64,000 bases of DNA from Candidatus Magasanikiibacteriota bacterium. GTDB taxonomy: Bacteria; Patescibacteriota; Patescibacteriia; Magasanikbacterales; UBA922. Both the position numbers and the translations under genes were made by a program. Below, piece by piece: positions 17,308 to 33,690 of the stretch; the first letter of the stretch is position 1; every line of letters begins with the position of its first letter. The stretch covers positions 15,539 to 79,538 of the forward strand of contig JBDGRL010000002.1 of assembly GCA_042218065.1 (NCBI GenBank), in the 5' to 3' direction. Below the pieces are notes generated by a model, which searched no databases, was not told where the DNA came from, and was given only the letters and a program-made list of their open reading frames with translations.

Positions 17308-17349
17308 GATTGCAACAAGCAGGTAAAAATGATAAAATTTACCTGCTAT

Positions 17350-17420: not shown

Positions 17421-17421
17421 C

Positions 17422-17973
17422 AAGATTAAACCGCTTTCTGAAGACCTGGATTTTACCGGACTTACTTCTAGTTCTAATGTAGAATCACTTTTTCTTACAA
17501 CTGTAGATAGGCTAAAGCAAAGGGGTATTACTGCTGAACTAGCAGAATCAAAACACACTTCCGGTGGTTTTTTAGGAGTCTTGTCGGTGAGTCTGTATGA
17601 GCTAAATATAGAGATAAAAGTAGAGGTCTCGCTGCGAGAAAAGAGTGCTAAAAGTGAGATTATAACTATCGCGAATGATTTCATTCCCAGCTATACAATT
17701 ACAGCACTAGCTCAAGAAAAAATTGTAGAAGAAAAGCTGCAGGCTGTGTTTAAAAGAACTAAACCCAGAGATTGGTACGATCTTTATTTTTTACTTCGCT
17801 CTCGGCTGGTTCCTGTAGAACAAAGAGATGTTTTAAAAGATGCCCTAGTAAAACTTAATCAAACAGATATTTCCTTTAGAAAATTGAAATTATTATTACC
17901 TCAAGACCATCATCAGATTTTACAGGATTTTGAGAAAAATTTGTCTCGTGAATTGAAAAGATTTGCAGACTGA
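17422..17973 (+). pseudogene. N-terminally truncated AbiEii/DUF1814-type nucleotidyltransferase toxin gene; the reading frame runs open from the tRNA-Cys 3' end
   Basis: Only the C-terminal part is present (KPRDWYDLYFLLRSRL, the AbiEii C-terminal motif). The frame is open from 17422 directly abutting the tRNA, with no ATG or RBS. The nucleotidyltransferase N-domain is absent. Confidence 0.5.
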
Positions 17974-18169
17974 CATTCTGCTTTGGGTCAAGTTGGCACA
18001 TCCGCTCTGATTTTTCAAACCCCGATCTCTTAATGAATATATTTTTACTACGTATTTAGAGAAGCCTGACTTGGACTCTTTTGAGAAGATAATAGAAAAA
18101 AGCAGAAAGATTGTAGCAAAAAAGATATAGAGAAAGAGGATGTTAAGGAGATTATAAAAGAAGTTAGAG

Positions 18170-18274
18170 ATGAAAATAATTCTTGATACAAATGTAGTTG
18201 TTTCCGGTATATTTTGGTCCAGTCCTCCATTTGAAATGCTTCAAGTTGGAAGAGAAATAGATTTCAGGTTATAA
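18170..18274 (+). pseudogene. Fragment of a PIN-domain toxin gene (first 34 codons only) overlapped by the tail of a decayed upstream antitoxin-like frame
   Basis: MKIILDTNVVVSGIFWSSPPFEMLQVGREIDFRL then stop. A typical PIN N-terminus (DTNVVVS) is truncated after about 34 aa. The upstream frame ...KEDVKEIIKEVRDENNS ends in an ATGA overlap with the toxin start. Confidence 0.5.
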
Positions 18275-18300
18275 TTACAAAAGAAGTTTATAATGAATGC

Positions 18301-18328
18301 TTGACATTTTTTTGATTTATTGTATAAT
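18301..18328 (+). promoter_or_regulatory. Consensus sigma70-type promoter for the DUF4143 ATPase gene
   Basis: TTGACA (18301-18306), a 16-nt spacer, then TATAAT (18323-18328). Confidence 0.5.
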
Positions 18329-18376
18329 TAAGTTGGTTATTTATGGAGTAAGATTATTAATTAGCCTGGTTATTTT

Positions 18377-19645
18377 ATGAATAGTGTTCAATTTATTAAA
18401 AGGGATCTACTTGAAGAACTGAAAGACCACTTATCTGAAAAAGAAATGTCTCTGATAGTCGGCCCCAGACAAGCAGGTAAGACTACCATAATGAGGAAAG
18501 TGCAGTCCCACCTGGAGAAAAACGGACAAAACACTCTGTTTTATGATTTGGATAAGCAGCCAGAGCTGTTTGAAACACAAGAAGAGTTTTTACAGAATCT
18601 CAAACTTGATGCGAACAAACAGAGAACATTCGTATTTTTAGATGAAATTCAACGCAAAAAAAACGCCGGTTTGTTTTTAAAAGGTATATATGACCGTGAT
18701 TTAGACTATAAGTTTATAGTTTCCGGCTCCGGCAGCTTGGAGCTTAAATCCGATGTGCATGAATCCATGGCGGGAAGAAAATTGGTGTTTGAATTGAGTA
18801 CAATATCCTTTCCGGAGTTTGTGAATTTTAAGACTGATTATCAATATGAAAGTCAGCTAGATCAATTTTTTCGCCTCAGAAAGGAAAAAGCTAGACTATT
18901 TTTGAAAGAGTATCTTAATTTTGGCGGTTATCCCCGTGTTGTTCAGAAACAAACAAGAGAACAAAAAAGAAGAATGATTGGTGAAATAGTGGATAGTTAT
19001 TTAAGAAAAGATATAACTGATTTGCTTGGTGTCAGAAAGACCGATAAATTCTCTAAACTGATAAAAATAGTTAGTGACCAAGTAGGTCAACCAATGAATT
19101 ACTCTAAATTAGCCCGTGATCTGCAAATAGACCAAAAAACGATTAAAAATTATATTTATTATGCTGAGGAGACTTTTGTAGTGGATAGAGTAAGACCTTT
19201 TTTTAGAAATAGAAAAAAAGAATTAACTAAAGCACCTGTTCCTTATTTTTTTGATATAGGTTTTAGAAATTATGAGCTAGGACAGTTTGGCAATTTAAGA
19301 ACAAGCAGCGAGTTTGGTATAGCTTTTGAAAACTTGGTGTACAATCAGCTTAAATCTAAGACCAGATTTTCTGCTTATGAAGTAAAATATTGGAGGACCA
19401 AGAACCAAACTGAGGTAGATTTTATTGTGACTTCAAGTCAAAGAAGAGCAGTTCCGATTGAGGTGAAATATAAAAACTTGAAAGAAACCAAAATACCCCG
19501 TTCTTTCAGGAGTTTTCTAAAAAAATATGAACCTGAAAAAGCTTATATCGTCAATCTAAGTCTTAATGAAACCAAGGAAATTGAGGATGTTGAAGTTGAG
19601 TTTATTTCTATCTTTAATTTTTTAGGCAAGTTGATAGTTAGCTAG
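18377..19645 (+). CDS. AAA+ ATPase with a C-terminal DUF4143 domain
   Basis: Walker A GPRQAGKTTIM, Walker B FVFLDEIQ, and a 422-aa two-domain architecture typical of the AAA_14/DUF4143 family. Confidence 0.75.
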   Translation: MNSVQFIKRDLLEELKDHLSEKEMSLIVGPRQAGKTTIMRKVQSHLEKNGQNTLFYDLDKQPELFETQEEFLQNLKLDANKQRTFVFLDEIQRKKNAGLFLKGIYDRDLDYKFIVSGSGSLELKSDVHESMAGRKLVFELSTISFPEFVNFKTDYQYESQLDQFFRLRKEKARLFLKEYLNFGGYPRVVQKQTREQKRRMIGEIVDSYLRKDITDLLGVRKTDKFSKLIKIVSDQVGQPMNYSKLARDLQIDQKTIKNYIYYAEETFVVDRVRPFFRNRKKELTKAPVPYFFDIGFRNYELGQFGNLRTSSEFGIAFENLVYNQLKSKTRFSAYEVKYWRTKNQTEVDFIVTSSQRRAVPIEVKYKNLKETKIPRSFRSFLKKYEPEKAYIVNLSLNETKEIEDVEVEFISIFNFLGKLIVS

Positions 19646-19696
19646 AAGAGGGTGTTTAATACTTAGTACAGTTTTGAGAGCATGCTTTAACTTATC

Positions 19697-19770
19697 CGCG
19701 GCAGTCAAGTGATAAAGCAGGGGGCTCCAAATTTTCGATTAATGTCGGTCGTACCTAAAGATTAAATCGC
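19697..19770 (+). repeat. Degenerate direct repeat of tRNA-Cys (D-loop to 3' end plus about 15 nt of 3' flank); putative distal att site of a decayed island
   Basis: GCAGTCAAGTGATAAAGCAGGGGGCTCCAAATTTTCGATTAATGTCGGTCGTACCTAAAGATTAAATCGC aligns at about 75% with the tRNA-Cys 17358-17434 region, including the flank AAGATTAAA(C/T)CGC. Confidence 0.6.
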
Positions 19771-19810
19771 ACAGAAAACTATGCGGTTTTTGTAGTAAAT
19801 TAAATATAGA

Positions 19811-20221
19811 TTAATTTTCTTTTTGTTCTGCTAATTCTCTAATAAGTTCAGCTTGCTCTTCGCTAAGAAGGTCTTCACTAGCAGTGCCTACTCCACCTGA
19901 CCCTTCCTTATCAAGTCCAAAAGCTTGATTTACTTTATCACCTCTTACAACTATGCTTATATGCTCTTCTCCATTTGTTAATTCTTCTGTTCTAATATCG
20001 AAATTATGGTCTCCAGCATCTGATACTTCTATTCCTTCTCTGTCTGAAACGTCACTACTTTCAAAAATAGCCTCAGCAATACCAGCTTCTTTTATTTTTT
20101 GGTCAATCTCTGGGGCAGACGACTCACCTTCTTGTCCAGATTCTTTATTACACTTTGGACAAGTTTTCCCTTTAGGGGTGCCGTGACTACATGTGGGAGT
20201 GTACCCTTCACCTATAGCCAT
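19811..20221 (-). CDS. Hypothetical acidic protein with an N-terminal Cys/His cluster (zinc-ribbon-like)
   Basis: N-terminus TPTCSHGTPKGKTCPKCN; the rest is acidic and low-complexity. Confidence 0.35.
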   Translation of the reverse strand: MAIGEGYTPTCSHGTPKGKTCPKCNKESGQEGESSAPEIDQKIKEAGIAEAIFESSDVSDREGIEVSDAGDHNFDIRTEELTNGEEHISIVVRGDKVNQAFGLDKEGSGGVGTASEDLLSEEQAELIRELAEQKEN

Positions 20222-20372
20222 AAAATTTTATTAAGAATAAACAACAACTTAATTATATATATATCGATAACTGGTCAAATTAGCTTAGTTGCAAAAAAGC
20301 AAGTTTTAAATTAAAAAGTTTATTCAAAATCCGATTAATGCTATAATCCAACTAAATTTAAAATTGTTATAA

Positions 20373-23069
20373 ATGGACAAAAAAAACTACAAAAACAGAC
20401 TCGTACTCATAGACGGCCATGCCATAGTCCACCGTGCCTATTATGCTCTGCCTCCTATGACTACCAAAGACGGCACTATGGTCAACGCGGTCTATGGTTT
20501 TACCACTATGCTGCTTAAAGTTCTGGAAGATTTGGAGCCGACACACATGGCGCTGGGAGTGGATGTAAAAGGAAAAACTTTTCGTGATGAGATGTATGAA
20601 CAGTATAAGGAACATAGAGAGGAAAAAGACCAGGAGCTGTACGATCAGATACCTATGACTCACAAGATTGCTGAAGCTTTTGATATCCCGGTATATAAAA
20701 AGCAAGGTTTTGAGGCTGATGATATTTTGGGAACTGTAGCCAAACACATCGATGAGCTGGACGGAGAAGATACGGAGGTGATAATAGTTACAGGTGATAA
20801 AGATATGCTACAGTTAGTTGATGAGCGCACCCGTATTGCTTTGATAAAAAAAGGCATAACTAACTTAAAAGTATATGATAGAGATGAGGTAGTTGCGGAA
20901 TATGGGTTTGCTCCTGAAAAGATGATTGATTATAAGGCTCTGAAAGGCGATTCATCAGACAACATACCCGGCATCAGCGGTATCGGAGATAAGCGAGCCA
21001 AGGATTTGATCGATACTATTGGAGGAGTAGATGAGGTGTTGGATCAGATTGATAAGCAAGATAGTAAGCTTTATAAGGAGTTTACTGAAAATATAATCTC
21101 TAAGATAAAAGACGGAACAGAAGATGCACAGATAAGCAAAAAGTTAGCCACAATACGCACTGACGTAGAAGAAACTAATTTTGACTTAGATAAGTGTAAG
21201 CTGGATGAGTTTGACCAACAAAAGATCAGAGATACATTTAAAAAGTTTGAGTTCTTTTCTCTACTAAAGCGTATTCCCGGCGCTGAAAACTTTGATACAT
21301 CCAAAAAGAAGGATGATTTTCTGAAAAACTTGAAAGATATTACAAGAATTACTACTTCAAGTGATTTAAAGCAATTGAAAAAAAAGATAGATAAAAACGG
21401 AAGTTTTGCTTGTAAAGAAGTGTTAAACTCGGAGTCAGTTATAAACTCCAGGGTTGAAGGTTTTGTATGTTTAGTAGATAATCAGCCCTTTTATATAGAT
21501 ATTAATGAGATAAACAGTAAAGAAAAGGTTTTGGATTTATTTGGCAAGGATATAGAGGTAGTAGGACACGATTTGAAGAGATTAGCCAAAACTGTACTAG
21601 ACCAAGGCAAGCCCTTTAGTTCAAAGCTGTTTGATATCAAGGTCGCATCTTATTTGATAAACTCCTCAGCCGACAGCCACAGCTTGGAGGAGATTATCCT
21701 CCGAGAGCTGGAGATAGAAGCTGAAGAGGAAGACAACCAGGATACTCTATTCGGAGAAGACCCGAAGCTGATAGCAGAGAACCTATACTTTTCTCTTAAA
21801 ATAAAAGAAGAATTCAGCGAAAAGCTGGATGAGGTGGATACTGAAAATTTATTCGAGGAGGTGGAGATGAAGTTGATACCTATCTTAGCGAAGATGGAAC
21901 TAAACGGAATTGCTATAGACCGAGACAAGTTTGACGATCTGTCCCAGCAAGTAAAAGAAAAAATAAAACAACTCGAAGAAAAGATTCATGAGCATGCGGG
22001 AGAAAAATTCAATGTAAACTCTACCAAGCAGTTGCGTGAGGTTTTATATGACAAACTTGAGCTTCCGACTGAAAATATAAAAGAAGGCAAGACAGGCTAT
22101 TCCACGGCAGCAAGTGAGCTGGAGAAACTTCGGGGAGAGCATCCGATTGTTGAGCTGATAGAAGAACATCGTGAGCTAGAGAAACTTCGCAATACATATA
22201 TAGATGTACTTCCTACATTAGTAAATGAGAAGACAGGTCGGATTCATACCAGCTTTAACCAAACCGTCACCGCCACCGGCAGACTTTCCAGCTCGGATCC
22301 GAATCTGCAAAATATACCGATACGCTCCGATTTGGGCAAAGAAATACGAAAGGCTTTTGTAGCAGAGAAAGGAGGCAAGCTTTTAGCTGCAGATTATTCT
22401 CAGATTGAGCTGAGGATAGTGGCACATCTGTCGGGAGATGAGAAGTTGATAGATATTTTCTCTAAGAATCAGGATGTACATACCGCTACAGCCGCTGAGA
22501 TTCATGAAGTTGAGCCCGACGAAGTTACGGCTGATATGCGCTCAAAGGCTAAAGAGGTTAATTATGGAGTATTATACGGCATGGGGCCACACGGTATGGC
22601 ACAACGGACGGATATAGACCGAGCGGAAGCCAAAAAGTTTATAGAGCGCTACTTTGAGAAGTTCAGCGGCGTGGAGAGATTTGTAGATAAATCTATCGAA
22701 TATGCTAAGGAGAAGGGTTATGCTGAGACCATGTTTGGACGTAGACGTTATCTACCAGAGCTTGAGTCTGATAACTACCACCTTAGACGTTCAGGCGAGA
22801 GGATGGCGATAAATATGCCGGTGCAGGGCACTCAAGCCGACCTAATCAAGATGGCGATGATTGAGATTGATCAACATATTGAGGATAAATTTAAAGGTGA
22901 TCTTAAAATGTTGCTTCAGGTACACGATGAGCTTGTTTTTGAAATAAATAAAGACGAGATAGACTTGGCCAAAAACATGATAGTAGAACAGATGGAAGAT
23001 ATAATTGATCTGGTTGTTCCGGTGGAGGTTGATGTGGCTGTAGGTGATAGGTGGGGTGAGTTGAAGTAA
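20373..23069 (+). CDS. polA: DNA polymerase I
   Basis: An N-terminal 5'-3' exonuclease domain (LVLIDGHAIVHRAYYALPP), then polymerase motif A DYSQIELR and motif B RSKAKEVNYGVLYG, then motif C VHDELVFE. Length 898 aa. Confidence 0.95.
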   Translation: MDKKNYKNRLVLIDGHAIVHRAYYALPPMTTKDGTMVNAVYGFTTMLLKVLEDLEPTHMALGVDVKGKTFRDEMYEQYKEHREEKDQELYDQIPMTHKIAEAFDIPVYKKQGFEADDILGTVAKHIDELDGEDTEVIIVTGDKDMLQLVDERTRIALIKKGITNLKVYDRDEVVAEYGFAPEKMIDYKALKGDSSDNIPGISGIGDKRAKDLIDTIGGVDEVLDQIDKQDSKLYKEFTENIISKIKDGTEDAQISKKLATIRTDVEETNFDLDKCKLDEFDQQKIRDTFKKFEFFSLLKRIPGAENFDTSKKKDDFLKNLKDITRITTSSDLKQLKKKIDKNGSFACKEVLNSESVINSRVEGFVCLVDNQPFYIDINEINSKEKVLDLFGKDIEVVGHDLKRLAKTVLDQGKPFSSKLFDIKVASYLINSSADSHSLEEIILRELEIEAEEEDNQDTLFGEDPKLIAENLYFSLKIKEEFSEKLDEVDTENLFEEVEMKLIPILAKMELNGIAIDRDKFDDLSQQVKEKIKQLEEKIHEHAGEKFNVNSTKQLREVLYDKLELPTENIKEGKTGYSTAASELEKLRGEHPIVELIEEHRELEKLRNTYIDVLPTLVNEKTGRIHTSFNQTVTATGRLSSSDPNLQNIPIRSDLGKEIRKAFVAEKGGKLLAADYSQIELRIVAHLSGDEKLIDIFSKNQDVHTATAAEIHEVEPDEVTADMRSKAKEVNYGVLYGMGPHGMAQRTDIDRAEAKKFIERYFEKFSGVERFVDKSIEYAKEKGYAETMFGRRRYLPELESDNYHLRRSGERMAINMPVQGTQADLIKMAMIEIDQHIEDKFKGDLKMLLQVHDELVFEINKDEIDLAKNMIVEQMEDIIDLVVPVEVDVAVGDRWGELK

Positions 23070-23112
23070 AATTAGCAACGCTGCTGTAAATAAATAGGAA
23101 ACACCAAAACAA

Positions 23113-23135
23113 AAACCGCCCTCTCGGGCGGTTTT
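23113..23135. terminator. Rho-independent terminator between the convergent polA and doxX genes
   Basis: AACCGCCC-TCTC-GGGCGGTT followed by TTT. Confidence 0.6.
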
Positions 23136-23158
23136 CAGGCTTCGTATTTAGAAAGATT

Positions 23159-23587
23159 TTATTCTTCTTTCATTTTGCAAATTCCACACCAGCTAAAACA
23201 TTCTTTTTTAATTAGCTGCCAGCTTCCTCCACCTAGTGCAGCTAGAGCTATATTAGCTCCTAGCAGTGCAATATCTAGACGTGCCGCTTTAAAACCGGAC
23301 TTTGCCTTCACTGTCAGGATAGCTACTAGCATAATTATAGCTAGTAGTTTTGCAAAGCATCTTAGGTAAACACCTAGAATTAAGGCAATACCACCCAAAA
23401 ACTCTACAATAGCTACTAGGTAAGCCCAGAAAGTTGGTCCGGGTAGGCCGATGCTGCCCATCATACCTACGATAGGGTCGATACCTGTTAATTTAGCCCA
23501 TCCTGTGGCTATAAAAATAGCACCTACTGCAAGCCGCAGCGCCAAAAAGCCTATATTTCTCAGCTTTTCTTCTTTGATTTTACCCAT
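23159..23587 (-). CDS. DoxX family membrane protein
   Basis: A four-TM protein with the DoxX-type N-terminus (LALRLAVGAIFIATGWAKL). Confidence 0.75.
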   Translation of the reverse strand: MGKIKEEKLRNIGFLALRLAVGAIFIATGWAKLTGIDPIVGMMGSIGLPGPTFWAYLVAIVEFLGGIALILGVYLRCFAKLLAIIMLVAILTVKAKSGFKAARLDIALLGANIALAALGGGSWQLIKKECFSWCGICKMKEE

Positions 23588-23630
23588 AAGTATATGGGTT
23601 AAGAATTAACTAGTTTAATTATAGCAAAAT

Positions 23631-24878
23631 TTAATCGTTTTTAAAAACTTTTGGTGAAATATTAGTCAAGTTTCTAAAGCCAAAAGTTCTCAGAGTCCAA
23701 TCTATCACTATTCTTATTTTTCTCACTACTCCCGGCATAAATAGTACATAAGCAGTTCTTCGCAGCCACCAGGCAAGCTTTCCAAACAATTTTAAATCAT
23801 TTAGCCAGGGAAAAACGGCTACTCCGTACCACTCCCCTACCGGCATAAGTCTTCCCTTGGATTTAAATGTAAATTGTTCTATATCGTTGTCTGTAATCTC
23901 GGATGTGATCTGCCTTGCGATGTATTCTCCTTCTTTGTGAGACGCTTCTCCCAGCTGAGGATAAACTTCTTTAGTTTTCGGGTCTTTTATCAGGGCTATA
24001 TCCCCGATCGGATACAGCGACTTGAATTCCAGGTGTTGTAGGTGCTCATTTGTTGGAACCCTGTCTTCTTTTAGGTATTTTTTCGGTAAGTATTTGCTGG
24101 CTTGAGTAGTAAAGCCTGTAGACCAGATAGTAATATCATTCGGCACCTGTTCGTTATTTGATAACTTTACCTGATTGTCGGTTACTTTATTTGCAGAAAC
24201 TTTAGTGTGTATTTCAACCCCTAGATCATTTAACCTTGCTTTAACTTTATTTTGCACTTTTTCACTCATATTACACATAATAGTATCCTGCACTTCAAAT
24301 ATTTGCACCTTCATATTAGTTTCTGGGTACAGTTTTTTGAAGTCATCCTGTTTTAGCTGCGCGATTTCTGCAGCTATCTCCACACCGATATATCCACCTC
24401 CGACAATATTAATATGTAGTTTATCTTGTTGCTGTTCTAGCTTGTTAATGAGTATGCTTTTTAGCTCAAGTGCCTCTTCTAGAGATCTTACATGATGAGT
24501 ATTTTCCTTGGCGCCCTCTACTCCGCAAAAATTAGTAACACTACCTAAAGCCAAAACACAGCGATCATACCTAATAGTACCTATATTTGTCTCTACTTCC
24601 TTTTCTTTAGGGAAGATAGTGCTTACTCTGGCTTGTCTGAACTTATGTCTCGACTTGTAAGTAAGCTCTCTAAGCTGAAGAGTAGCATGGGGCGGGTCAA
24701 CTGCTCCGGTAGCGACCTCATGCAACAATGGAACAAAGGTAAAGTAGTTGTTTTTATCAATCAGAGTTATCTCTTTATTTATGTTTTGCTTTTTAAATTT
24801 CTTCTTGAGACTGCGAAAAGCTTCAAGACCGGCAATACCTCCTCCTAGAATAGCCACGTCTGTTTGAATATCGCTCAT
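23631..24878 (-). CDS. ndh: Type II NADH:quinone oxidoreductase (NDH-2)
   Basis: An N-terminal FAD Rossmann fold VAILGGGIAGLEA, then LIDKNNYFTFVPLLHEVATG, a second NAD-binding GxGxxG (IVGGGYIGVE), and a C-terminal membrane-anchoring region. Confidence 0.85.
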   Translation of the reverse strand: MSDIQTDVAILGGGIAGLEAFRSLKKKFKKQNINKEITLIDKNNYFTFVPLLHEVATGAVDPPHATLQLRELTYKSRHKFRQARVSTIFPKEKEVETNIGTIRYDRCVLALGSVTNFCGVEGAKENTHHVRSLEEALELKSILINKLEQQQDKLHINIVGGGYIGVEIAAEIAQLKQDDFKKLYPETNMKVQIFEVQDTIMCNMSEKVQNKVKARLNDLGVEIHTKVSANKVTDNQVKLSNNEQVPNDITIWSTGFTTQASKYLPKKYLKEDRVPTNEHLQHLEFKSLYPIGDIALIKDPKTKEVYPQLGEASHKEGEYIARQITSEITDNDIEQFTFKSKGRLMPVGEWYGVAVFPWLNDLKLFGKLAWWLRRTAYVLFMPGVVRKIRIVIDWTLRTFGFRNLTNISPKVFKND

Positions 24879-24964
24879 ATTATCAAATGTAAATTAGACT
24901 AGGATAACTATAGCATTTTTAGGGTTTTTTTAAAATGAACGTACACCTATTATTCAGATCTTGT

Positions 24965-25186
24965 TTAGGGCTTCTGTAGTTTGGCAATAAAGGAGGTAAG
25001 CTTTCCGTCTTGTGTTAACTGCAAAGATTTTTCCATATTAAAGTTTTGTTTTATTTTAGGTTTGAATTTCTCTGGCAGTTTTTCTTGAATTTCTGTTTTA
25101 TTTCTTTTGATTTTATTTAATACTTTTTTGTAAGTTTTAGATAAATGTGTGTTTAGATCTTCAAAATTTTCTAATCTGTTTAACAC
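24965..25186 (-). CDS. Hypothetical small basic protein
   Basis: Complete ORF of 73 aa; no motif recognised. Confidence 0.3.
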   Translation of the reverse strand: MLNRLENFEDLNTHLSKTYKKVLNKIKRNKTEIQEKLPEKFKPKIKQNFNMEKSLQLTQDGKLTSFIAKLQKP

Positions 25187-25481
25187 TATCGATGAAGATG
25201 TTGGGTTTTTTAATTAAATTGACGTCATTCTCAGACAGCCATTTGTTTATCTTCCTTTCTATGTCTTCTCAGACGGAAGGGTAGTCCAGACACCCTTTGA
25301 ACATTTTGACTTTCATTTTTTCCTCCTGTTTTACTACACCTTACCACATAACACCCGAACGGTTTAACAGACGGCATTACGTCTGAAATTATGTGGGTTT
25401 GTTAGAGAACGATAATTATTACAAATATTTTTTGTAACAAGTATCGTTTTCTAACTTGAAAATCGGAGTGCGGCGTCAAGT

Positions 25482-25575
25482 GAGTGCAGTACTTGACGCC
25501 GCATGTACTTTGGTCTCTACTTGAAGCACAGCTTCAAGTAGAGACACCGGACTTACGTGTCCAGCGGTTTTTGAG
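25482..25575. other. Tandem perfect GC-rich hairpins immediately 3' of the GC-rich gene (putative terminators or structured element)
   Basis: GCGGCGTCAAGT-gagtgcagt-ACTTGACGCCGC is a 12-bp perfect stem. It is followed by GGTCTCTACTTGAAG-cacag-CTTCAAGTAGAGAC and then CCGGAC-ttacgt-GTCCAG. Confidence 0.5.
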
Positions 25576-25577
25576 AG

Positions 25578-26747
25578 TTAACTCTCTTGTTTTGGCGCGG
25601 ATTCGACAGCATCTTCGGCTCTGTTCTGCCAATCACCGGCATGAACCACGCGCTCAACGGCAAGTTCTTTCGCTTTCGTGGCTGTAAACTCACCATTGGC
25701 GAAGTCACGCGCCAACTCTTCCTTGTCGAACACGAACATGGCGTGTCCGTAGTTCGGAGAGTCGACCACGTAGACAGGTTCGCCGTCTTTTTTGCCGATG
25801 AAGAGCAGACGTTCGCCGAGACTGACCTCGACGTCGTGACATTTATCGAAGATGTCACCGTCGAAACATTCGCCCTTGACCTTCTCGATCCGTTCTTTGT
25901 TTCGATTTCGTTTCCTTTGCTTTTTTACTTGCTCTCGGACAAGTTCGTTGGAGTTGATCTCATCGAGAAACTTGCCCTCAATCGCTTCCAGAAACAGCCC
26001 CCAGTTTTCCTCTTTGATTGGTTGGGCGAAACGGATGTCCTGATGCTTTTTCTGCCACTCGTGTCCATGAGGGCGTTCAGGCGGGATTTCTATCTCACGG
26101 TTCGTCATTTTTGAACCAAACCAACGAAAGGGTTGCTCGAATTTTCTAGCGAGCACATCCCCCTCCGAAAGATTGCGAGCCTGCTCGAAAGTAATGGTTT
26201 CGTCCAGGATCGTAGTGGCACTACAATAAGGCTCCAAAATCTCCGTTCTTAAAAGCAGGTCTCCAATAATCTCTTTATCCAGATCAGCCAACTCCATGAT
26301 TTTATCAAGTCTTCCATATCTATAGAATCCATCTAAGAGGGATGAGCTTTCGTCTTTCTCTTTCCAACTATTTACCGACCCATCCCAGCACATAACAGGT
26401 ACTTTTTTGGATCTAAAAGTAAAATGGCTTCCATCTTCAGTTTGGATGTAAACTACCTCTACTGTCGTAGGAAATGAAATATTAGGGTCTCTAGGCATGA
26501 ATCCCCGTGGATTACACTCATCACTTGGACGATCATAAAACACTGTTCTCGGCTGATCCGAATCGGAAAAGTATACTTGTTTAAGGTATTGCTGCAACTT
26601 TCGATGGGTCTCCTCCTTTACATCTACTTCTGGTACAGGCATCATCGAAGGATCGATCCCCTTTTTTGTAAAAATTTTCTCAGTATAGATTCTTTTTGAT
26701 TTAACTGTAAGAGTTTCCAAAAATCTCTTTTTGTTGTCGTTGCTCAT
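25578..26747 (-). CDS. Hypothetical protein encoded by a compositionally anomalous (GC-rich 3' half) gene
   Basis: 389-aa complete ORF. The 3' two-thirds of the gene (about 25580-26250) is visibly about 50% GC against a local background near 30%. Overlapping ORFs on both strands are typical of high-GC DNA. No family was recognised. Confidence 0.45.
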   Translation of the reverse strand: MSNDNKKRFLETLTVKSKRIYTEKIFTKKGIDPSMMPVPEVDVKEETHRKLQQYLKQVYFSDSDQPRTVFYDRPSDECNPRGFMPRDPNISFPTTVEVVYIQTEDGSHFTFRSKKVPVMCWDGSVNSWKEKDESSSLLDGFYRYGRLDKIMELADLDKEIIGDLLLRTEILEPYCSATTILDETITFEQARNLSEGDVLARKFEQPFRWFGSKMTNREIEIPPERPHGHEWQKKHQDIRFAQPIKEENWGLFLEAIEGKFLDEINSNELVREQVKKQRKRNRNKERIEKVKGECFDGDIFDKCHDVEVSLGERLLFIGKKDGEPVYVVDSPNYGHAMFVFDKEELARDFANGEFTATKAKELAVERVVHAGDWQNRAEDAVESAPKQES

Positions 26748-27019
26748 CTTCCTCTCCTCGTTTGAGAAGAATTCAAAACCGCGGGTTCAGCTGTCTGAAC
26801 CGCTTCCAGAGCGGAATAGCATACTTGAGAAAAGTACACTACTCCGCTCTGGATTTTTAAAGAACAATATCATCAATATTGACATCGATGACATTACATT
26901 TAAACATAATTATTAAAGTTTGTCAAGCCTGTCATTGATTTTTTGATGACAATTTGTAATAATATATTTGACTTAAAGTAGGTGTTGGAAGGCTAATTTA
27001 TCATAATTTAATTGACAAA

Positions 27020-28180
27020 ATGAAAACTTTAAGAAAAAATCTTCAAAAACTCGGCTTTTCAAAAAATAAGATCGACGTTTATCTTGCTTTGTATGAAGAA
27101 GGTGAAGCAAAAGCTAGAAAGATTATTGATAAAACGGATTTACATAGGAATATTGTCTATACTGAGCTAAATGAGTTGATTGATAAAAATTTAGTTGCAA
27201 AAAAGGAGGAAAGCGGAGTTGCGGTGTTCCAGGTGCTTGCCCCACAAAGACTAATGCAAGAGATAAAAAGGAAAGAAGAGATAGCAAAAAACACTATAGA
27301 AGAGTTGCAGACTATCAATGAACCACAAAAACAGGAAATTGTTATACGAGAAGGCAAGGAAGAGCTTCGGGACATTTTGTATGAAATGCATGAAAATAGA
27401 GATGAAAATGAGGAGTGGAAAATATTAGGAGCCTCAGAAAAATGGTTTGAAAAAAATATTTTATCTCAAGATGATTACAATGAGCTGATCAAAAAACAAG
27501 AAAAAAAAGGTTTTAGAAAAAAAATAATTAGTTCCAGTTCAATTAAAGATTTTCCCGAGAGAAGTAATACTGAGTTTAAATTAGTACCCAGCTTAACTAC
27601 TGAAGATAATGAAGTACATGTTTTTGGAGATAAGGTAATTCATACTGTTTTGGTTGAACCTTATACGGTAATTGAGTTTTCAAACAAAAAATTAGTTAAT
27701 TCCTATGATAGTTTCTTCAACAGTCTTTGGAGCCAAGAAGTCATAACTTACAGAGGCTGGGATGAAATTAAAAATATGTATATGGATGTAGTTTTACCTT
27801 CATTGGAGTCAGGGGATGATAGTTATTTGTTCACGACTTACCCCCAACAAGAAAAGGAAGCTGAGATAGGAAGTAGAGTTTGGGATGAGTTTAATGAAAA
27901 ATGGAAAGAAAAAGGTTTAAATAAGAAATTTATCTTTTTTTCAGAAGAAGAGGCAGAAATAACAAAAGAGAGACACCGGGAAACCGGGATAAGAAAAAAA
28001 TGTGAGTATAAAACTCTACCTAAGGAATATTTTTCTGTCTTATCCATAGTAATTTACGGTGATAAATATGTGGCGCTAACTGATCTTTCCGAACCTGTTG
28101 CTACTTTGTATTCGAATGAAAATATAATCGAAAGTTATAAAAGTCATTTTAAGATGTTGTGGAATATTGCAGAAAAGTAA
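27020..28180 (+). CDS. TrmB-family (winged-helix) transcriptional regulator with a large C-terminal domain
   Basis: The N-terminus LQKLGFSKNKIDVYLALYEEGEAKARKIIDKTDLHRNIVYTELNELIDKNLV matches the TrmB N-terminal HTH pattern. Confidence 0.55.
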   Translation: MKTLRKNLQKLGFSKNKIDVYLALYEEGEAKARKIIDKTDLHRNIVYTELNELIDKNLVAKKEESGVAVFQVLAPQRLMQEIKRKEEIAKNTIEELQTINEPQKQEIVIREGKEELRDILYEMHENRDENEEWKILGASEKWFEKNILSQDDYNELIKKQEKKGFRKKIISSSSIKDFPERSNTEFKLVPSLTTEDNEVHVFGDKVIHTVLVEPYTVIEFSNKKLVNSYDSFFNSLWSQEVITYRGWDEIKNMYMDVVLPSLESGDDSYLFTTYPQQEKEAEIGSRVWDEFNEKWKEKGLNKKFIFFSEEEAEITKERHRETGIRKKCEYKTLPKEYFSVLSIVIYGDKYVALTDLSEPVATLYSNENIIESYKSHFKMLWNIAEK

Positions 28181-28223
28181 AATAAGTTTTATCATACATA
28201 AAAATAATACTTCTTTTTACTTT

Positions 28224-29198
28224 ATGGTTTTATTACTTTACGGCGAAGACACCTTTCGCTCTAAGCAAAAATTGAAAAAAATGAAGCAAAAATTTAGCGA
28301 TGAGAGGGATAAAGAAGGTCTAAACTTAGTAAAGCTTGATGCAGAGAACTCTGAGCCAGGAGAGATCGAGGAGCAGATATTCGCATCTCCTTTTCTATCA
28401 GAGAAAAGAATGGTCATAGTTGAGAATTTTATAGAATCAGACCATGATAATCTGAAGGAGAGATTGTTGGAGAAAATAGAATCCAGGAAAATACCCGATT
28501 TCATTAATTTAATTTTTTGGGAGGGGGATATTGATCCAAATAAAGGAATAGCTCAAGATTTATTTGATCGACTGCAACAAGAAAAATACTCACAGGAGTT
28601 TAATAAATTTGAGGGGCAGAAGCTTCGGGCGTGGGTAAGTAATAAGATTGAAGATTTGGGGGGTGATATTAATAGAGGTGCTTTAGATTATATGGTCCGA
28701 CATGTGGGGAATGATATGTGGCAGCTTAATAATATTTGTCATCAGCTGGTTGCCTATACCGACAAAGGCACCATAGAGCGAGAGGATGTAGATGTATTTA
28801 TAAAAGAGGATGTAGATACCGATATATTTAATTTAATTGATTCGATAGTGGAGAAAAAACCGAAAGAAGTGTATAATATGATTCGTGAACAATACAGATC
28901 CGGAAAAGATCCTCACTATATTTTTGCTATGGTTTTACGTCAGTTTAGGATAATGTATAAGATAAATGATGCAATAGAGCGTGGAGAAAACCCAAAAGGT
29001 AAAAAATATGCCAATAAACTGGATCTACACCCTTATGTATTAAAAAAGACCCGGCCTGTAGCCGAGAAATATGAAAAAAATAAAATTGAAGATATTTACG
29101 ATAAGCTGCTAGATATAGACGAAAAAACTAAGACTGGACAGCACGACGAAGGGCTTTTGGTTGATGTTTTTGTTGGTGAGATTTGCAAAAATGCTTAA
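28224..29198 (+). CDS. holA: DNA polymerase III delta subunit
   Basis: The start MVLLLYGEDTF resembles the HolA N-terminus, and the length is right. The ORF track start at 28167 overlaps the upstream gene, so the internal ATG at 28224 is preferred. Confidence 0.6.
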   Translation: MVLLLYGEDTFRSKQKLKKMKQKFSDERDKEGLNLVKLDAENSEPGEIEEQIFASPFLSEKRMVIVENFIESDHDNLKERLLEKIESRKIPDFINLIFWEGDIDPNKGIAQDLFDRLQQEKYSQEFNKFEGQKLRAWVSNKIEDLGGDINRGALDYMVRHVGNDMWQLNNICHQLVAYTDKGTIEREDVDVFIKEDVDTDIFNLIDSIVEKKPKEVYNMIREQYRSGKDPHYIFAMVLRQFRIMYKINDAIERGENPKGKKYANKLDLHPYVLKKTRPVAEKYEKNKIEDIYDKLLDIDEKTKTGQHDEGLLVDVFVGEICKNA

Positions 29199-30337
29199 TC
29201 TATAGAGTTTTCAAGTTCTTCAATAGCCTCATCTCGTCTTTCTATAGCAGCTTCTATTTTTTCCATGACAACAGTATCTAGCCCCATATCTTTTGCTCTT
29301 TTTTGTGCTTGCTCTAATCTGCCACTTTCAATAAGTTTTTTAATAAAATCTGCAACAGATGTTTTTTCAGTGGTAGATTCTTCCTTTGTGAACTCCTCAT
29401 CCTTGCCTCTATAAATAACAGTTTCAAACATATTTTCATTAGAATCATCAACTATATTTATCCTTAACTGATTTTTTCCACTGGATGATCCGGCGCCTTG
29501 TTTTGCAGAGAGTTCAGCCTGGTCAGCTTGGGTTATCATTCTGCTAGCTATTGTTTTGGGTTTCCCAGCCAAGCTTTCTTTTGGTGAAACAATTCTTGAT
29601 CCCATACTTACAGATAAGTTTTTTTGTATTTTCCTTCTATCTTCATCAGAAAGACCAATAGTTTCGTGAATATCAATATCTGTTAGTTTATCAAAAAGTC
29701 TTTTAGGTGCGGACATTGCATTTTTTTTGCTACTAATCTCTCTAAACATTACACTAAACTCGTCACCACCCTCACTAGCTGCCACATCAGATTCTCTAAT
29801 TGTGTCTTCAATAACTCTTGCGATCTTTTTAATTATCTTGTCACCTGCCGGATGGCCAAAATTATCATTAATTTCTTTGAAATCGTCTATATCAATATAA
29901 ACTACATTAAAAAACTTATCTCTTTCTCTGTCTTCCCCTATTTCTTGGGCTAAAACCTCTCTTATGGGTCCCTTTTCCAGGAGACCAGTTAGATCATCCT
30001 CCCTCCCTTCTATTTTAGTTTCAGTGAATCTTATTGCATGATCAGCTATTATCTCTTTTTCTACTTGAGTTATTGTGTAGCCCTCACCTTTATCTTCTCT
30101 ATTTTTTTTAAGCCTGGCCTCAATATCTCTCTTAATAGTATCTTTAAGTATGCCCTTTTTTAGATTTTCCATTGGTTTACTTTCACTTCTAATTTTTTCG
30201 AGATATCCTTGTAAATCTTCTAGGCTTTCATCCTTTAACATATTTTCCAAATGGGATCTTGCGATAGTTTCACTCATATCAAATTCTTGGGTTTCTGGTT
30301 CTTCGCCTCTTCCTCTCTGACCTTCGCTTGTGTCCAT
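29195..30337 (-). CDS. GGDEF-domain protein (putative diguanylate cyclase) with an N-terminal coiled-coil region
   Basis: DIDDFKEINDNFGHPAGDKIIKKIA...RESDVAASEGGDEFSVMF. The GGDEF active-site motif is intact and no TM or EAL domain is present. Confidence 0.75.
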   Translation of the reverse strand: MDTSEGQRGRGEEPETQEFDMSETIARSHLENMLKDESLEDLQGYLEKIRSESKPMENLKKGILKDTIKRDIEARLKKNREDKGEGYTITQVEKEIIADHAIRFTETKIEGREDDLTGLLEKGPIREVLAQEIGEDRERDKFFNVVYIDIDDFKEINDNFGHPAGDKIIKKIARVIEDTIRESDVAASEGGDEFSVMFREISSKKNAMSAPKRLFDKLTDIDIHETIGLSDEDRRKIQKNLSVSMGSRIVSPKESLAGKPKTIASRMITQADQAELSAKQGAGSSSGKNQLRINIVDDSNENMFETVIYRGKDEEFTKEESTTEKTSVADFIKKLIESGRLEQAQKRAKDMGLDTVVMEKIEAAIERRDEAIEELENSID

Positions 30338-30343
30338 ATTGTA

Positions 30344-30610
30344 CTATTGTTGTTTATTAACTTTCTTCTGCATCTGAGACATTATTCTAGAAGCTTTATT
30401 TTCTTTAATAGCACCGACTTTAGCTGCTTTGTCTAGTGCTTTTTGAAGATTTGAAAGTTTTTCATTTAACTCATCTTCATCAGCTCCATTTTTTATAGCT
30501 TTTTCTAGTTCTTTTTTGATTTTTTTATATTCCTCTTTTCTTTTGTTATTTATTTTTGTTCTTTTCTTGGTTTGCTTCAGGTGTTTTTTCGCTGAAGGTC
30601 TGTTTGGCAT
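30344..30610 (-). CDS. rpsT: 30S ribosomal protein S20
   Basis: An 88-aa basic protein with N-terminus MPNRPSAKKHLKQTKKR and C-terminus KVGAIKENKASR. Confidence 0.85.
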   Translation of the reverse strand: MPNRPSAKKHLKQTKKRTKINNKRKEEYKKIKKELEKAIKNGADEDELNEKLSNLQKALDKAAKVGAIKENKASRIMSQMQKKVNKQQ

Positions 30611-30667
30611 ATTAATGTTTTTAATAAATTAATCTAGATTAAACTATAGTAAATTTAGTCTATTTTG

Positions 30668-31780
30668 TCAACTTTCTAACTCCGGGCCTTCTACTTGTTC
30701 AGCTTCTATTTCTTGCTCTACTTCGGTAATTTTAGCTACATCTTTATCTACTTTTCTCAACTCATCATAAGCAGTATTAAAATGATTCACTGTAGTAGAT
30801 AGAGTTTTTCCTAGCTTTTGCATATAAGTATCGTGATTTTGGATGTGGTTTTTTAACTTTTCTACATTTTTTCTTATTTCTTTGGCGCTTTCTTCTATTT
30901 GAAGAGATTTCAAACCTTGCAATACAGTTTGTAGATAAGCTGCGAATGTAGTTGGTGATACGATTATAACATTCTTGTCCTTGTGTGCATACTCGATTAA
31001 ATTTCTTGTAGTCGCTTCAGTAGAACCTACTTTATTGACTAGAAGATCATAATATATTGCTTCAGCCGGGATAAACATGAATGCAAATTCTAGTGTACCT
31101 TGGTTTGGTTTAATGTACTTGGAAGTCTCCTTGATTCTATTTTTTAAGTCTTTTTTAAGTTGTTTTTTTATTTTTTCTTTTTTATCTTTGTCTTCTGTTT
31201 TCATAAGTCTTGAGTAATTGTCCAATGAGAATTTTGCATCAACCGGTATTAGCCCATTTTTAGTTTTCACCACTGCATCTACTTGGTCACCATCTTCGAA
31301 TTTGTATTGCATTTCATATCCCATTGGAGGAAGAATGTTTTCTAGTATTAGTTTAAGTCCTGCTTCCCCCAGTGCTCCTCTTCTTTTTTGGTGGGTTAAA
31401 ACCTGTTTTAGATCTTGAAGCTGTTCTGAATAATCCATTACCTTCTCATTTGTCTTTTCTAAGCTCGTTAGTTTTTTCTGTAATTCTTTCAGTTCTTTTT
31501 TGCTATCTTTGGTTATATCTTTGATTGTTTCTTTGTTCTCTTTGTATTGTTCCTTGATAGATTTGTTTAATTTTTCCTTTGTTTTAGACATTTCTTTGTG
31601 GGTGTTTTGCATTTTTTCGTCTACAGTTTTATTTAGTTGCTGGATTTGTTTCTGTAGCATCATCATAGAATCTTTATTTTCTTCAGTTTGAAGCTGTTTT
31701 AGTTTTTTATACATTATATATATACCCACTAATGCGGCAATCAATAAAATTGTGAGTAAGATTAATAAAAGCTGTTCCAT
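30668..31780 (-). CDS. rmuC: DNA recombination protein RmuC
   Basis: An N-terminal TM and a long coiled coil precede a C-terminal RmuC domain (FAFMFIPAEAIYYDLL...IIVSPTTFAAYLQTV). Confidence 0.8.
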   Translation of the reverse strand: MEQLLLILLTILLIAALVGIYIMYKKLKQLQTEENKDSMMMLQKQIQQLNKTVDEKMQNTHKEMSKTKEKLNKSIKEQYKENKETIKDITKDSKKELKELQKKLTSLEKTNEKVMDYSEQLQDLKQVLTHQKRRGALGEAGLKLILENILPPMGYEMQYKFEDGDQVDAVVKTKNGLIPVDAKFSLDNYSRLMKTEDKDKKEKIKKQLKKDLKNRIKETSKYIKPNQGTLEFAFMFIPAEAIYYDLLVNKVGSTEATTRNLIEYAHKDKNVIIVSPTTFAAYLQTVLQGLKSLQIEESAKEIRKNVEKLKNHIQNHDTYMQKLGKTLSTTVNHFNTAYDELRKVDKDVAKITEVEQEIEAEQVEGPELES

Positions 31781-32084
31781 TTAAATAGTGTTACTTAATG
31801 CCAAGTTATTATAACACTATAGGTAATGGATAGAAAATTTTAGTATATTATATTTTACGACGCAGAATTTATTCTTAATTAAGTGAAATTTAAGTTTGTT
31901 AAAAAGTGATTAAAAATTTAATCAGAATCTGATTTTATTAATTCTCGTTTGTATCTTAATTTATTTTATTTGAAATTGTTTCACGTGAAACAATATAGGC
32001 TTTTTAAACTAATAAGATTAAAATAAATATTTTAGCTTGATAAATTTATTGAAATTTGTTACTGTGAAGTTGTTCTTTCAGGAC

Positions 32085-32365
32085 AACGAGTTTGCTAGTG
32101 GTAATTCCTAGGATTACCTACTGGCATGCCCTAGCCATCTCTGGGAGCAGCTAATAGCTGCCTAAGATTGATGCTCCGTTCGGGCGAGTCCGGATAATCA
32201 ATCTTAGAAAAAGCTGGCAGCCGATGCTGGGGCTTACTTGCCTTCGGCAGGGCAGGACCTCCTCCCCAGTGAATCGGTTTGGGGTTTCACCCACCCCGCC
32301 TCCCGATAGATCTCTATTGCCCTGATCAAGCAATATATCTACCGGGAGGTAAACGGGTTTTTTTA
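32085..32365 (+). ncRNA. GC-rich structured RNA-like element of unassigned identity, between parS sites 1 and 2
   Basis: About 280 nt at over 50% GC inside roughly 25% GC intergenic DNA. Multiple hairpins: GGTAAT-tcctagg-ATTACC, GCAGC-taata-GCTGC, GATTGAT...ATCAATC, CTTGCC-ttc-GGCAGG, and a long CCTCCCG...CGGGAGG stem followed by a T7 run. No clear protein frame. Confidence 0.35.
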
Positions 32366-32800
32366 TTTAAAATTGTTTCACGTGAAACAATTCTGCTCGT
32401 ATTTTACTCTGATATGGGTATTTAGCAGTAATTTTGCAGTTAAAATGTTTCACGTGAAACAATTTTACATCAATATACAGTCTTTTTGCTTATAAAAAAT
32501 GTTTCACGTGAAACAATTTAGTTACTTAAAACGTGTAAATAAGACAAAACACCGAAAAAAAGTGAATAATATTGTTTCACGTGAAACACTTTTTAAACTG
32601 AATAACCAAAATTATCTTTATTTGCATATTTATTACTTTTTTTTAGTATAGCTCCCTTTTTTATCTTAGATTGATAACAGCTCCCAAAAATGCTATAATC
32701 ACCCTGTATTGTTTCACGTGAAACAATTTAAACCAAGAAAATATAGGAAATAGGGTAAATGAGATGAAAAATGGATGAAAATGTTTCACGTGAAACATTT

Positions 32801-32872
32801 GCCCTCGTAGTTTAATGGACAAAACAAAAGCCTCCTAAGCTTTAGATGCACGTTCGATTCGTGCCGAGGGCA
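32801..32872 (+). tRNA. tRNA-Arg (anticodon CCT)
   Basis: Acceptor GCCCTCG/CGAGGGC, anticodon stem-loop AAAGC-CTCCTAA-GCTTT, T-arm GCACGTTCGATTCGTGC; 72 nt. A parS site sits immediately upstream (32780-32799). Confidence 0.85.
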
Positions 32873-33180
32873 CAAGTAAATACTCTTCATTAGAAAGGTG
32901 CTGAGTGTTCTTTTAGTGTATATTTAGACTCAATGTTTCATGTGAAACATTGAAAAGATAAATTAAACTTGTTAAACCCCTATAAAAGCCAAAAAGTTAT
33001 AAAGATATAGAAAAAAGTATATTTATAACTGAAAAGTACATAAAATTGTTTCACGTGAAACAATTTGGTAAAACCTTTAATCAAAAACGGGCTTGTTAAT
33101 TGTTTCACGTGAAACAAAGAGGAGTTAAAAATCTGTTTAGTTGTTTTTTGAAATTTTAGCGTCGTAAAATATTAATATCT

Positions 33181-33265
33181 TGTGGAAAACTTGTTGATAA
33201 GTTAAAAAAATTAGTGGATAAATTGTGTATAAGTTCTTAAAATCTGTTGATAAAGCTGTGGATAA
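33181..33265. promoter_or_regulatory. Dense cluster of six DnaA-box-like 9-mers (second oriC-like or DnaA-titration element)
   Basis: TGTGGAAAA (33181), TGTTGATAA (33192), AGTGGATAA (33213), TGTGTATAA (33224), TGTTGATAA (33246) and a perfect TGTGGATAA (33257-33265), all on the same strand within 85 bp. AT-rich DNA follows. Confidence 0.5.
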
Positions 33266-33361
33266 AAACAATTTAAACTAAATTAAGCTCAAATTATAAT
33301 AAGTTTATATAGATCCGTTTTTATCGACTAAATATTGAAAAATTCATCAATCAAGGCGTAT

Positions 33362-33690
33362 TAGATCATAAAAAAATGTTACTGAAATGACTTACGGTTA
33401 GATCACAAAAAATGTTACTGTGGTGTGTTTAATTTTTTAAATTGAACACACCATGAACAATCAAGCTAAAACATCTTACCAGCGAGTGCAAGAGCACTCG
33501 CAGATAGACCAGAAAGTAAAAAATAAACTTAAAGAAAAATTTAAGCAACTTAACCCCAAACAACTTAAAGAAAACATAGACAAAATGATTAAAAAGATTA
33601 GAAAATCAGCCCAAAATACAAAATAATTTCAGTAACATGCTTTTATGATCTAACCGTGGGGGGTTGAGTAACAATTTTTATGATCTAAAG
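33362..33690. repeat. Four copies of a TAGATCA(Y)AAAAAATGTTACTG motif (two direct, two inverted) bracketing a 57-codon Lys-rich ORF
   Basis: Direct copies at 33362-33388 and 33398-33424; inverted copies at 33618-33648 and 33668-33690. The ORF 33453-33626 (+) encodes MNNQAKTSYQRVQEHSQIDQKVKNKLKEKFKQLNPKQLKENIDKMIKKIRKSAQNTK. A related GTTACTG motif lies at about 32055. Confidence 0.35.

Follow-up and report, generated by a model that had tools for sequence, protein, structure and literature searches.

Introduction

Genomic islands integrate between core genes, at sites referred to as hotspots. At the level of the transcript, stem-loops are known to stabilise mRNA, as exemplified by the 5' hairpin of the Escherichia coli ompA leader, the 3' repetitive extragenic palindromic (REP) hairpins of malE–malF and the RNase III sites of T7 early mRNA; duplexes of 22–25 bp are long enough to serve as RNase III substrates. 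In Patescibacteria, genomic islands and gene exchange are common (PMC12455944), and an island in this group thus represents a kind of element that is already known. Here, we describe a 64,000-nt stretch from a Candidatus Magasanikiibacteriota bacterium (assembly GCA_042218065.1, contig JBDGRL010000002.1, positions 15,539–79,538; hereafter the window) which, as judged by comparison with related genomes, carries a genuine and well-delimited horizontally acquired island. Its cargo is a 389-aa gene of elevated GC content that is flanked by strong hairpins on both sides and faces the gene of a TrmB-family regulator. We consider it fairly probable that the locus represents small-island cargo, i.e., a foreign gene behind a TrmB-divergent promoter, with hairpins that would act as RNA structures of the sense transcript and a slot that would constitute a hotspot.

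Results and discussion

An inserted island and empty sites in relatives

The orthologous locus was anchored on the neighbouring Pyr_redox_2 gene (NADH-dehydrogenase-like, ndh-like) and recovered in nine related assemblies; L010, L015, L017 and L028 (L numbers denote loci) were repeats of other loci or broken at the start of the Pyr_redox gene. Four relatives displayed an empty site, with holA and Pyr_redox in divergent orientation and 122–160 nt apart (L009, L013, L011 and L014, whose Pyr_redox proteins are 78%, 68%, 66% and 55% identical to that of the window, respectively). In L016 and L030, a DUF1003 gene alone was found between the two genes. Alignment with the four empty sites placed the island borders at ~24964/24965 and ~28163/28164 and revealed that the ancestral spacer was split without loss. 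Between these borders, a 73-aa ORF is followed by a 15-codon ORF, the 3' hairpin stack, the 389-aa gene, the leader hairpins, the promoter region and the TrmB-family regulator gene (Table 1). An initial annotation made from the letters alone had suspected horizontal acquisition and had named a homologue at the same locus in closely related low-GC genomes as the observation that would speak against it; the gene, together with its flanks, was absent from this locus in six related genomes (L009, L011, L013, L014, L016 and L030).

Since the source is a metagenome-assembled genome and the GC content shifts inside a single ORF, an assembly chimera, a contaminant or a native gene with a GC content set by amino-acid constraints could be invoked as well. 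Against this stands an independent Logan assembly of SRR28304479, which was 100% identical to the window over 16,185 bp (17218–33402) and covered both junctions, so that the chimeric join against which the initial annotation had cautioned is very unlikely. Furthermore, the reading frame is unbroken and shows homology to the family over its length, the gene is missing from the locus in relatives, and the anomaly sits at synonymous sites, as detailed below. We therefore regard an artefact or a native gene as highly improbable.

Table 1 Features of the island with their positions in the window
Feature	Position	Strand	Basis or remark
Inserted island, ~3.2 kb, in divergent holA/ndh-like promoter region	24965..28163	.	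Alignment to the short spacer of relatives
73-aa lysine-rich ORF, AT-rich, at island edge	24965..25186	-	No family in Pfam, PHROGs, PADLOC, NCBIfam
15-codon ORF ending at TGA	25269..25316	-	Perfect AGGAGG at 25322-25327; read from sequence
Five 3' stem-loops without proper U-tract: 25546-25565, 25513-25545, 25469-25503, 25401-25455, 25344-25396	25344..25565	-	Fold
389-aa gene, annotated hypothetical protein ABEJ24_00290	25578..26747	-	Uncharacterised family, compositionally foreign
Shine-Dalgarno hairpin: GAGGAGAGGA (26750-26759) pairs with UUCUUCUC (26764-26771)	26749..26771	-	Fold
Terminator-like hairpin, 9 bp, GC-rich, followed by GGUUUUGAAU	26781..26803	-	Attenuator-like; partial U-tract match only
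22-bp leader hairpin	26805..26853	-	Three of three DNA mismatches are G·U on the sense strand
Imperfect palindrome, 14 bp with 4 G·U, just after the -10 element	26865..26896	-	Likely operator and 5'-terminal mRNA stem-loop
Conserved cargo promoter	26898..26934	-	TGACAG (26929-26934), -35 TTGACA (26921-26926), 17-nt spacer, -10 TTAAAT (26898-26903)
TrmB-family regulator gene, 386 aa	27020..28180	+	PF01978 TrmB winged helix-turn-helix, E = 1.1e-11, above gathering score

Composition of the 389-aa gene

The window has a GC content of 35.1%, somewhat above the 30–33% assumed initially, and the 389-aa ORF reaches 45.1% overall. Its 3' half (25578–26162) accounts for 50.4% and its 5' half for 39.8%; the GC-rich part that had been estimated at about 50% is therefore real and extends over the 3' half of the gene instead of its 3' two-thirds. 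Plots of windowed GC and tetranucleotide usage identified the gene region as the top outlier of the 64 kb and ruled out a uniform GC content. The GC-richest 600-nt stretch starts at 25501 (50.7%; mean 35.2%, standard deviation (sd) 3.8%), and the tetranucleotide deviation peaks at 25401–26600 (z = 4.6). GC at third codon positions (GC3) increased along the quarters of the gene from 0.37 and 0.40 to 0.55 and 0.61, compared with a host reference of 0.295 ± 0.063 derived from 47 long ORFs of the window. Synonymous-site GC in the 3' half thus lies about 4–5 sd above that of host genes. A similar 5'-to-3' rise in GC3 was observed in the insert of a relative (L012, see below); family members elsewhere lack it, except that their first quarter is lower.

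Taken together, the absence of the gene from the locus in six relatives, the GC3 offset and the occurrence of homologues in GC-matched genomes of 53–66% GC support the horizontal acquisition of the 389-aa gene, apparently from a donor of higher GC content. Mild GC enrichment was noted throughout 20–27 kb of the window even outside the island. The polA gene (20373–23069), for instance, exhibited a GC3 of 0.38–0.44, raised relative to most window genes, and a local GC content of up to 47% (22100–22850).

The protein family

No recognisable family had been assigned to the 389-aa protein in the initial annotation, and this holds with respect to named families: the protein itself, 47 family members and 10 long members gave no match in Pfam, PHROGs, PADLOC or NCBIfam. 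Likewise, no anti-phage defence or phage match of the protein was obtained in PADLOC, PHROG or BFVD, tblastn against phages, plasmids and IMG/VR returned no match, and no match to the family was found in the PDB. An exhaustive HMMER search, however, uncovered an unnamed family of 118 representative clusters at E < 1e-3. In nearly all of them the match comprised the C-terminus of the cluster protein, corresponding to query residues ~185–381, and identity reached 41–47% in the best cases, over the C-domain only. Four residues (P222, P226, H369 and W373) were invariant in 47 sequences and five more (R225, W231, W249, D329 and P331) nearly so. All motifs of the C-terminal domain (P-x-x-R-P, NW, VDSP-x-YG and H...W) are present in the 389-aa protein, and its AlphaFold model is confident in this domain (pLDDT > 90). 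The N-terminal half is poorly conserved except for a motif, FPxxVxVVxIxTxDG (residues 89–125), that recurs in the N-termini of homologues. This shared motif demonstrates that the ORF constitutes a single gene belonging to one family, and the fused or chimeric gene that had been considered was rejected on these grounds. The family consists of soluble proteins with an N-terminal beta motif and a C-terminal alpha/beta domain of ~190 aa.

Family members elsewhere reside in genomes of 53–66% GC, with one at 39%, and the GC content of the gene equals that of its host in each case. Two of the genomes belong to Candidatus Uhrbacteria (62% GC). In other lineages the gene is syntenic and present in single copy, next to housekeeping genes (nrdR and pyruvate kinase with ftsZ; ftsK; recA; or mraW and a 114-aa ORF), and no conserved operon around family members emerged among the loci compared. 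Three high-GC genomes (L005 3763–6564, L006 3815–6552 and L022 2763–5564) encode a family member of 489–491 aa directly after mraW (rsmH), which was confirmed by Pfam in L005 and L006 and assigned in L022 from ORF size and synteny. The 114-aa ORF, which has the size of ftsL, accompanies mraW in L005 and L022, while L006 was not resolved in this respect; the mraW-side slot corresponds to the place of ftsL/ftsI in classical dcw clusters. Genomic neighbourhoods with mraW, ftsZ and ftsK may be a possible hint at a link to cell division. The family is a candidate for annotation: it counts at least 118 clusters, its C-domain is modelled with confidence, and it has neither a Pfam model nor a structural relative among solved or viral proteins.

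Hairpins on both sides of the gene

In a 120-nt sliding scan of both strands, the two flanks of the gene proved to be the most structured places of the window, and the two longest of the 14 perfect hairpins of at least 9 bp in the 64 kb are located at these flanks. The 3' flank folds with –104.5 kcal/mol (z = –10.5). Of the two perfect inverted repeats reported initially at this position, both are real: one stem measures 15 bp (25513–25527/25531–25545), while the other comprises 13 bp rather than 12 (25469–25481/25491–25503). The third, imperfect hairpin was found as a 7-bp stem just past the stop codon (25546–25565). Two further repeats that had been pointed out are present as parts of larger stems, AACGATA...TATCGTT within an AT-rich hairpin with 25-nt arms (25401–25455) and CAGACG...CGTCTG nested in a CACATAA...TTATGTG stem (25344–25396). 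A minus-strand terminator scan of 25320–25580 called none of these hairpins. The native terminators at 1841, 9706 and 23112 exhibit a canonical A-tract/stem/T-tract arrangement, unlike the hairpins flanking the gene.

The 5' flank had been overlooked in the initial annotation. Here, 26749–26896 contains four stem-loops (z = –9.9), and the 153-nt leader folds considerably better on the sense strand (–69.6 kcal/mol, eight G·U pairs) than on the antisense strand (–47.1 kcal/mol, none). A 120-nt segment holding the 22-bp hairpin yielded –59.8 versus –42.7 kcal/mol for sense and antisense, respectively. Long stems of the L012 insert likewise display imperfections that are G·U pairs on the sense strand (3, 2, 2 and 1). 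As the imperfections of the stems correspond to sense-strand G·U pairs, the hairpins are most likely transcript-level elements of the mRNA, where they would act in stability, insulation and translation control. The transcript should start at ~26889–26891, as predicted from the promoter, 2–3 nt ahead of the 14-bp stem-loop that is also the candidate operator.

Could the hairpins be a passenger structure, that is, GC-rich hairpins that came with the gene from an intergenic region of the donor and play no role in the present host? In the Uhrbacteria loci L003 and L004, high-GC members of the candidate phyla radiation (CPR), three tandem hairpins without U-tract directly follow the family member, the last of them overlapping the ribosome-binding site of the next gene, and part of the window stack may thus have travelled with the gene. 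Hairpins 25469–25565 also match the GC content of the 3' end of the gene. The leader hairpins and the AT-rich hairpin 25401–25455, however, do not have the composition expected of the donor. Stems of 13 and 15 bp that are perfect, and imperfections elsewhere that are G·U only, favour ongoing selection, and the unrelated L012 cargo has the same bracket arrangement. We rate the passenger explanation as rather unlikely.

The initial annotation had also suggested a retron- or intron-like RNA, an idea to which a stand-alone non-coding RNA gene beside the ORF can be added, and the density and high stability of the secondary structure would fit such elements. Its own observation that a reverse transcriptase motif is lacking was borne out by Pfam searches, which detected neither a reverse transcriptase nor a maturase in the island or its neighbours. 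Rfam revealed no family at E ≤ 10 in 24500–27300 or at the gathering score over the whole window, and permissive matches at the locus and in the window were chance, miRNA-like hits that follow hairpin shape. Moreover, the structures form a string of simple, independent hairpins without long-range architecture and lie exactly in the 5' and 3' untranslated regions of the gene. Such an RNA is consequently a very remote prospect. As specific candidates, a group II intron (no domain V/VI RNA in Rfam, no reverse transcriptase or maturase in Pfam) and a retron (no reverse transcriptase among all neighbours in Pfam, no msr/msd match in Rfam at E ≤ 10, simple independent hairpins) were rejected.

A shared regulator and promoter with different cargo

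The regulator gene divergent from the cargo possesses a host-like GC3 (0.26–0.31). NCBIfam TrmB models matched the protein weakly, and beyond residue ~145 there was no match in Pfam or NCBIfam, including the TrmB sugar-binding C-terminal domain. In the 161-nt spacer between the two genes, TGTCAT/ATGACA occurs in three copies, compared with 0.07 expected.

Two relatives share elements of this arrangement. L012, which stems from a different study and whose Pyr_redox is 64% identical to that of the window, has an 85-nt block of the regulator-gene spacer in common with the window (76% identity). Behind this block, an insert of ~1 kb (180–1150) with 55–63% GC in a context of ~30–38% GC carries an orphan 197-aa ORF, a leader with a 23-bp hairpin (z = –8.2) and, at its 3' end, a 330-nt stack of stem-loops (z = –7.2); Rfam matches on this insert were chance, miRNA-like and due to hairpin shape alone. 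At the same site, L029 (Pyr_redox 50% identical) encodes a full-length TrmB orthologue (33% identity, E = 1e-74) and a divergent 192-aa ORF (5267–5845) that is unrelated to the window cargo and has a GC3 of 0.65 versus 0.32–0.43 in its neighbours. A three-way alignment of the window, L012 and L029 disclosed a common promoter composed of TGACAG, a –35 element TTGAC, a spacer of 17–18 nt and a TANANT-like –10 element, followed directly by a GTCAY...RTGAC palindrome in all three. To judge from these alignments, a resident module of regulator and promoter backs unrelated, compositionally foreign genes in different genomes. In addition, L030 contains a shorter TrmB paralogue elsewhere in its genome, with a divergent, GC-rich 191-aa ORF (1108–1683, GC3 0.73). 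Five matches to the promoter pattern in IMG/VR were all chance occurrences inside unrelated coding sequence, and the TrmB protein found no match in a scan of metagenomes.

The GC-rich ORFs of ~190 aa in L029 and L030 are mutually unrelated; both show a signal-peptide-like N-terminus and an aromatic last residue. Their ends resemble those of outer-membrane beta-barrel proteins, which would be odd for CPR bacteria.

The shared module raises the question of whether the slot takes up genes actively. A gene-capture platform would receive single-gene cassettes at the TrmB/promoter slot by site-specific or single-strand recombination, with the hairpins serving as recombination sites (cf. attC or the subterminal hairpins of HUH elements). 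That three unrelated GC-rich cargos share an orthologous promoter and a chromosomal site is in line with this idea, as are hairpin stacks that bracket two of the three cargos (window and L012), the lack of strand preference in the 3' stack and basal stems of the long 5' hairpins that read alike in window and L012. The latter likeness, though, was at chance level in local alignment: neither the hairpin bases nor the 3' regions of window and L012 were more similar than shuffled controls. Neither Pfam searches nor gene calls turned up a gene for a recombinase, integrase, HUH protein or transposase inside the island or close to it. Each site holds one cargo instead of an array, the stems are perfect and devoid of the extrahelical bases and R''/R' boxes of attC, the right-hand junctions of window and L012 differ, and hairpin stacks are missing from L029. 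Within the 64 kb, the hairpins are not repeated: both flanks, searched against the window by blastn-short, gave self-matches alone, and thus no dispersed copies of the REP or bacterial interspersed mosaic element (BIME) type within this range; exact hairpin sequences were also absent from IMG/VR. Capture by recombination therefore appears improbable.

We assign similarly low odds to the more general notion that a TrmB-type regulator and its divergent, operator-bearing promoter form an integrase-less "expression slot" that would capture single GC-rich foreign genes, with hairpin stacks marking or insulating each cassette. If true, such a slot would give streamlined symbiotic bacteria a means, not described before, of domesticating foreign genes with repression already in place. 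A new route of gene domestication would follow if the pattern of one platform with different GC-rich cargos were general; otherwise, the locus is an ordinary small island.

Two classes of mobile element were considered and rejected. An integron cassette is contradicted by the lack of IntI (the divergent gene encodes a TrmB-type winged helix-turn-helix protein), of an array and of attC boxes or extrahelical bases. The attC pattern R''(RYYYAAC)...R'(GTTRRRY) was not found on reading the sequence, without a dedicated attC model being run, and the sole GTTAG...CTAAC stem has the reverse box order. For IS200/IS605 or a hairpin-ended transposon, there was no TnpA/TnpB (the 389-aa protein had no hit in Pfam or NCBIfam) and no second hairpin copy in the 64 kb, and the family is syntenic elsewhere.

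Proposed function of the locus

As the comparison with relatives shows, ~3.2 kb (24965–28163) has been inserted between holA and the NADH-dehydrogenase-like gene of a Candidatus Magasanikbacteria lineage. According to the reading of the locus as small-island cargo, a sigma-70-type promoter with operator-like TGTCAT/GTCAY palindromes, divergent from the TrmB gene, would drive the gene from the higher-GC donor. The four hairpins of the leader may hold the expression of this foreign gene tightly attenuated and shield the 5' end of the mRNA, and the five-hairpin 3' stack is assumed to stop 3' exonucleases as well as read-through toward the essential ndh-like gene, which retains its own promoter (AAAAATGCTATAGT), conserved in relatives. 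The slot behind regulator and promoter would be a hotspot, with unrelated GC-rich genes occupying it in two related genomes.

Several observations weigh against this reading. The 3' stack folds equally on both strands, the strand asymmetry being strong for the leader only, which leaves room for a role of the stack at the DNA level. In L029, the platform exists without hairpin stacks and the cargo ends in a canonical terminator. The GC3 gradient within the 389-aa gene is not accounted for by simple amelioration. The best homologues reach 41–47% identity, over the C-domain only, and the host-like GC of the TrmB gene implies that regulator and cargo may differ in history. No integrase (Pfam, gene calls), no tRNA at the borders and no clear target-site duplication (junction alignments) were found for the island. 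Finally, the transcription start, the 3' ends and any processing are predictions from sequence.

The locus thus offers a clear case, verified by comparison with relatives, of a gene acquired by a streamlined CPR bacterium, and a view of how a foreign gene may be wired into its host: it would be placed behind a resident, probably repressible promoter, with unusually strong mRNA structure walling off the essential neighbour. Of the features described, the bracketing hairpins and the platform of regulator and promoter that recurs with exchanged cargo merit follow-up.

Other features of the island and the window

At the holA-side edge of the island, the 15-codon ORF could give rise to a longer product by read-through of its in-frame TGA or by a frameshift into the 73-aa ORF; Pfam lent no family support to either product. 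The two ORFs may represent a gene in decay or, alternatively, a leader peptide. At a distance of about 6 kb from the island (17587–19645), the Logan gene calls (L007) contain genes for an AbiEii-family toxin and for an AAA_14/DUF4143 ATPase, suggesting more accessory content in the region.

Elsewhere in the window, ten parS-type palindromes TGTTTCACGTGAAACA, nine of them perfect, occur within 1.1 kb (31977–33116), compared with 0.04 expected by chance. They are situated in a gene-free region of ~1.9 kb around tRNA-Arg(CCT), and their arrangement resembles a centromeric (ParB-loading) cluster of unusual density. Immediately ahead of the first parS sites, a GC-rich and strongly folding non-coding stretch (32200–32360) ends in a terminator-like hairpin; it is one of the strongest structure outliers in the window and had no Rfam match at E ≤ 1. 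DnaA-box-like 9-mers (TTATCCACA, at most one mismatch) cluster at 33181–33265, 13475–13642 and 4192–4295, with six in 85 nt adjoining the parS cluster, four beside tRNA-Leu and five upstream of a 469-aa ORF on the minus strand (12059–13468), possibly dnaA. Judging from these motifs, the region of the replication origin is probably covered by the window.

Comparison with known systems

Among described systems, genomic islands such as those catalogued for Patescibacteria (PMC12455944) come close to the locus. As in islands at hotspots, the insertion lies between core genes, here holA and the ndh-like gene, is absent in close relatives and deviates in composition from the host, and relatives hold other content at the site. 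By contrast, the island is tiny (3.2 kb), and an integrase, a tRNA target and detectable direct repeats are all missing; moreover, regulator and promoter are kept and the downstream gene alone changes.

In the integron platform (intI–Pc–attI), a divergent platform gene likewise stands beside a fixed promoter, followed by a variable gene and hairpin-forming DNA on its 3' side. In the window, however, the platform gene encodes a TrmB-type regulator instead of a tyrosine recombinase, a single cargo takes the place of an array, attC core sites and extrahelical bases are missing from the perfect stems, and hairpins are also present 5' of the gene.

With stably folded ends of the mRNAs mentioned at the outset, the locus shares a stem-loop a few nucleotides from the predicted 5' end, duplexes of 22–25 bp and a stack without U-tract after the stop codon. 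It differs in that its predicted hairpins are unique and belong to no repeat family, and their number and perfection are unusual for a single gene. Retrons also combine stable stem-loops with an adjoining uncharacterised ORF, but neither a reverse transcriptase nor an msr/msd-like architecture nor an Rfam match was found at the locus.

The regulator, finally, resembles sugar-responsive TrmB proteins in its N-terminal winged helix (PF01978), in its length and in the palindromic candidate operators that overlap the divergent promoter, whereas its C-terminal ~300 aa match no TrmB sugar-binding model.

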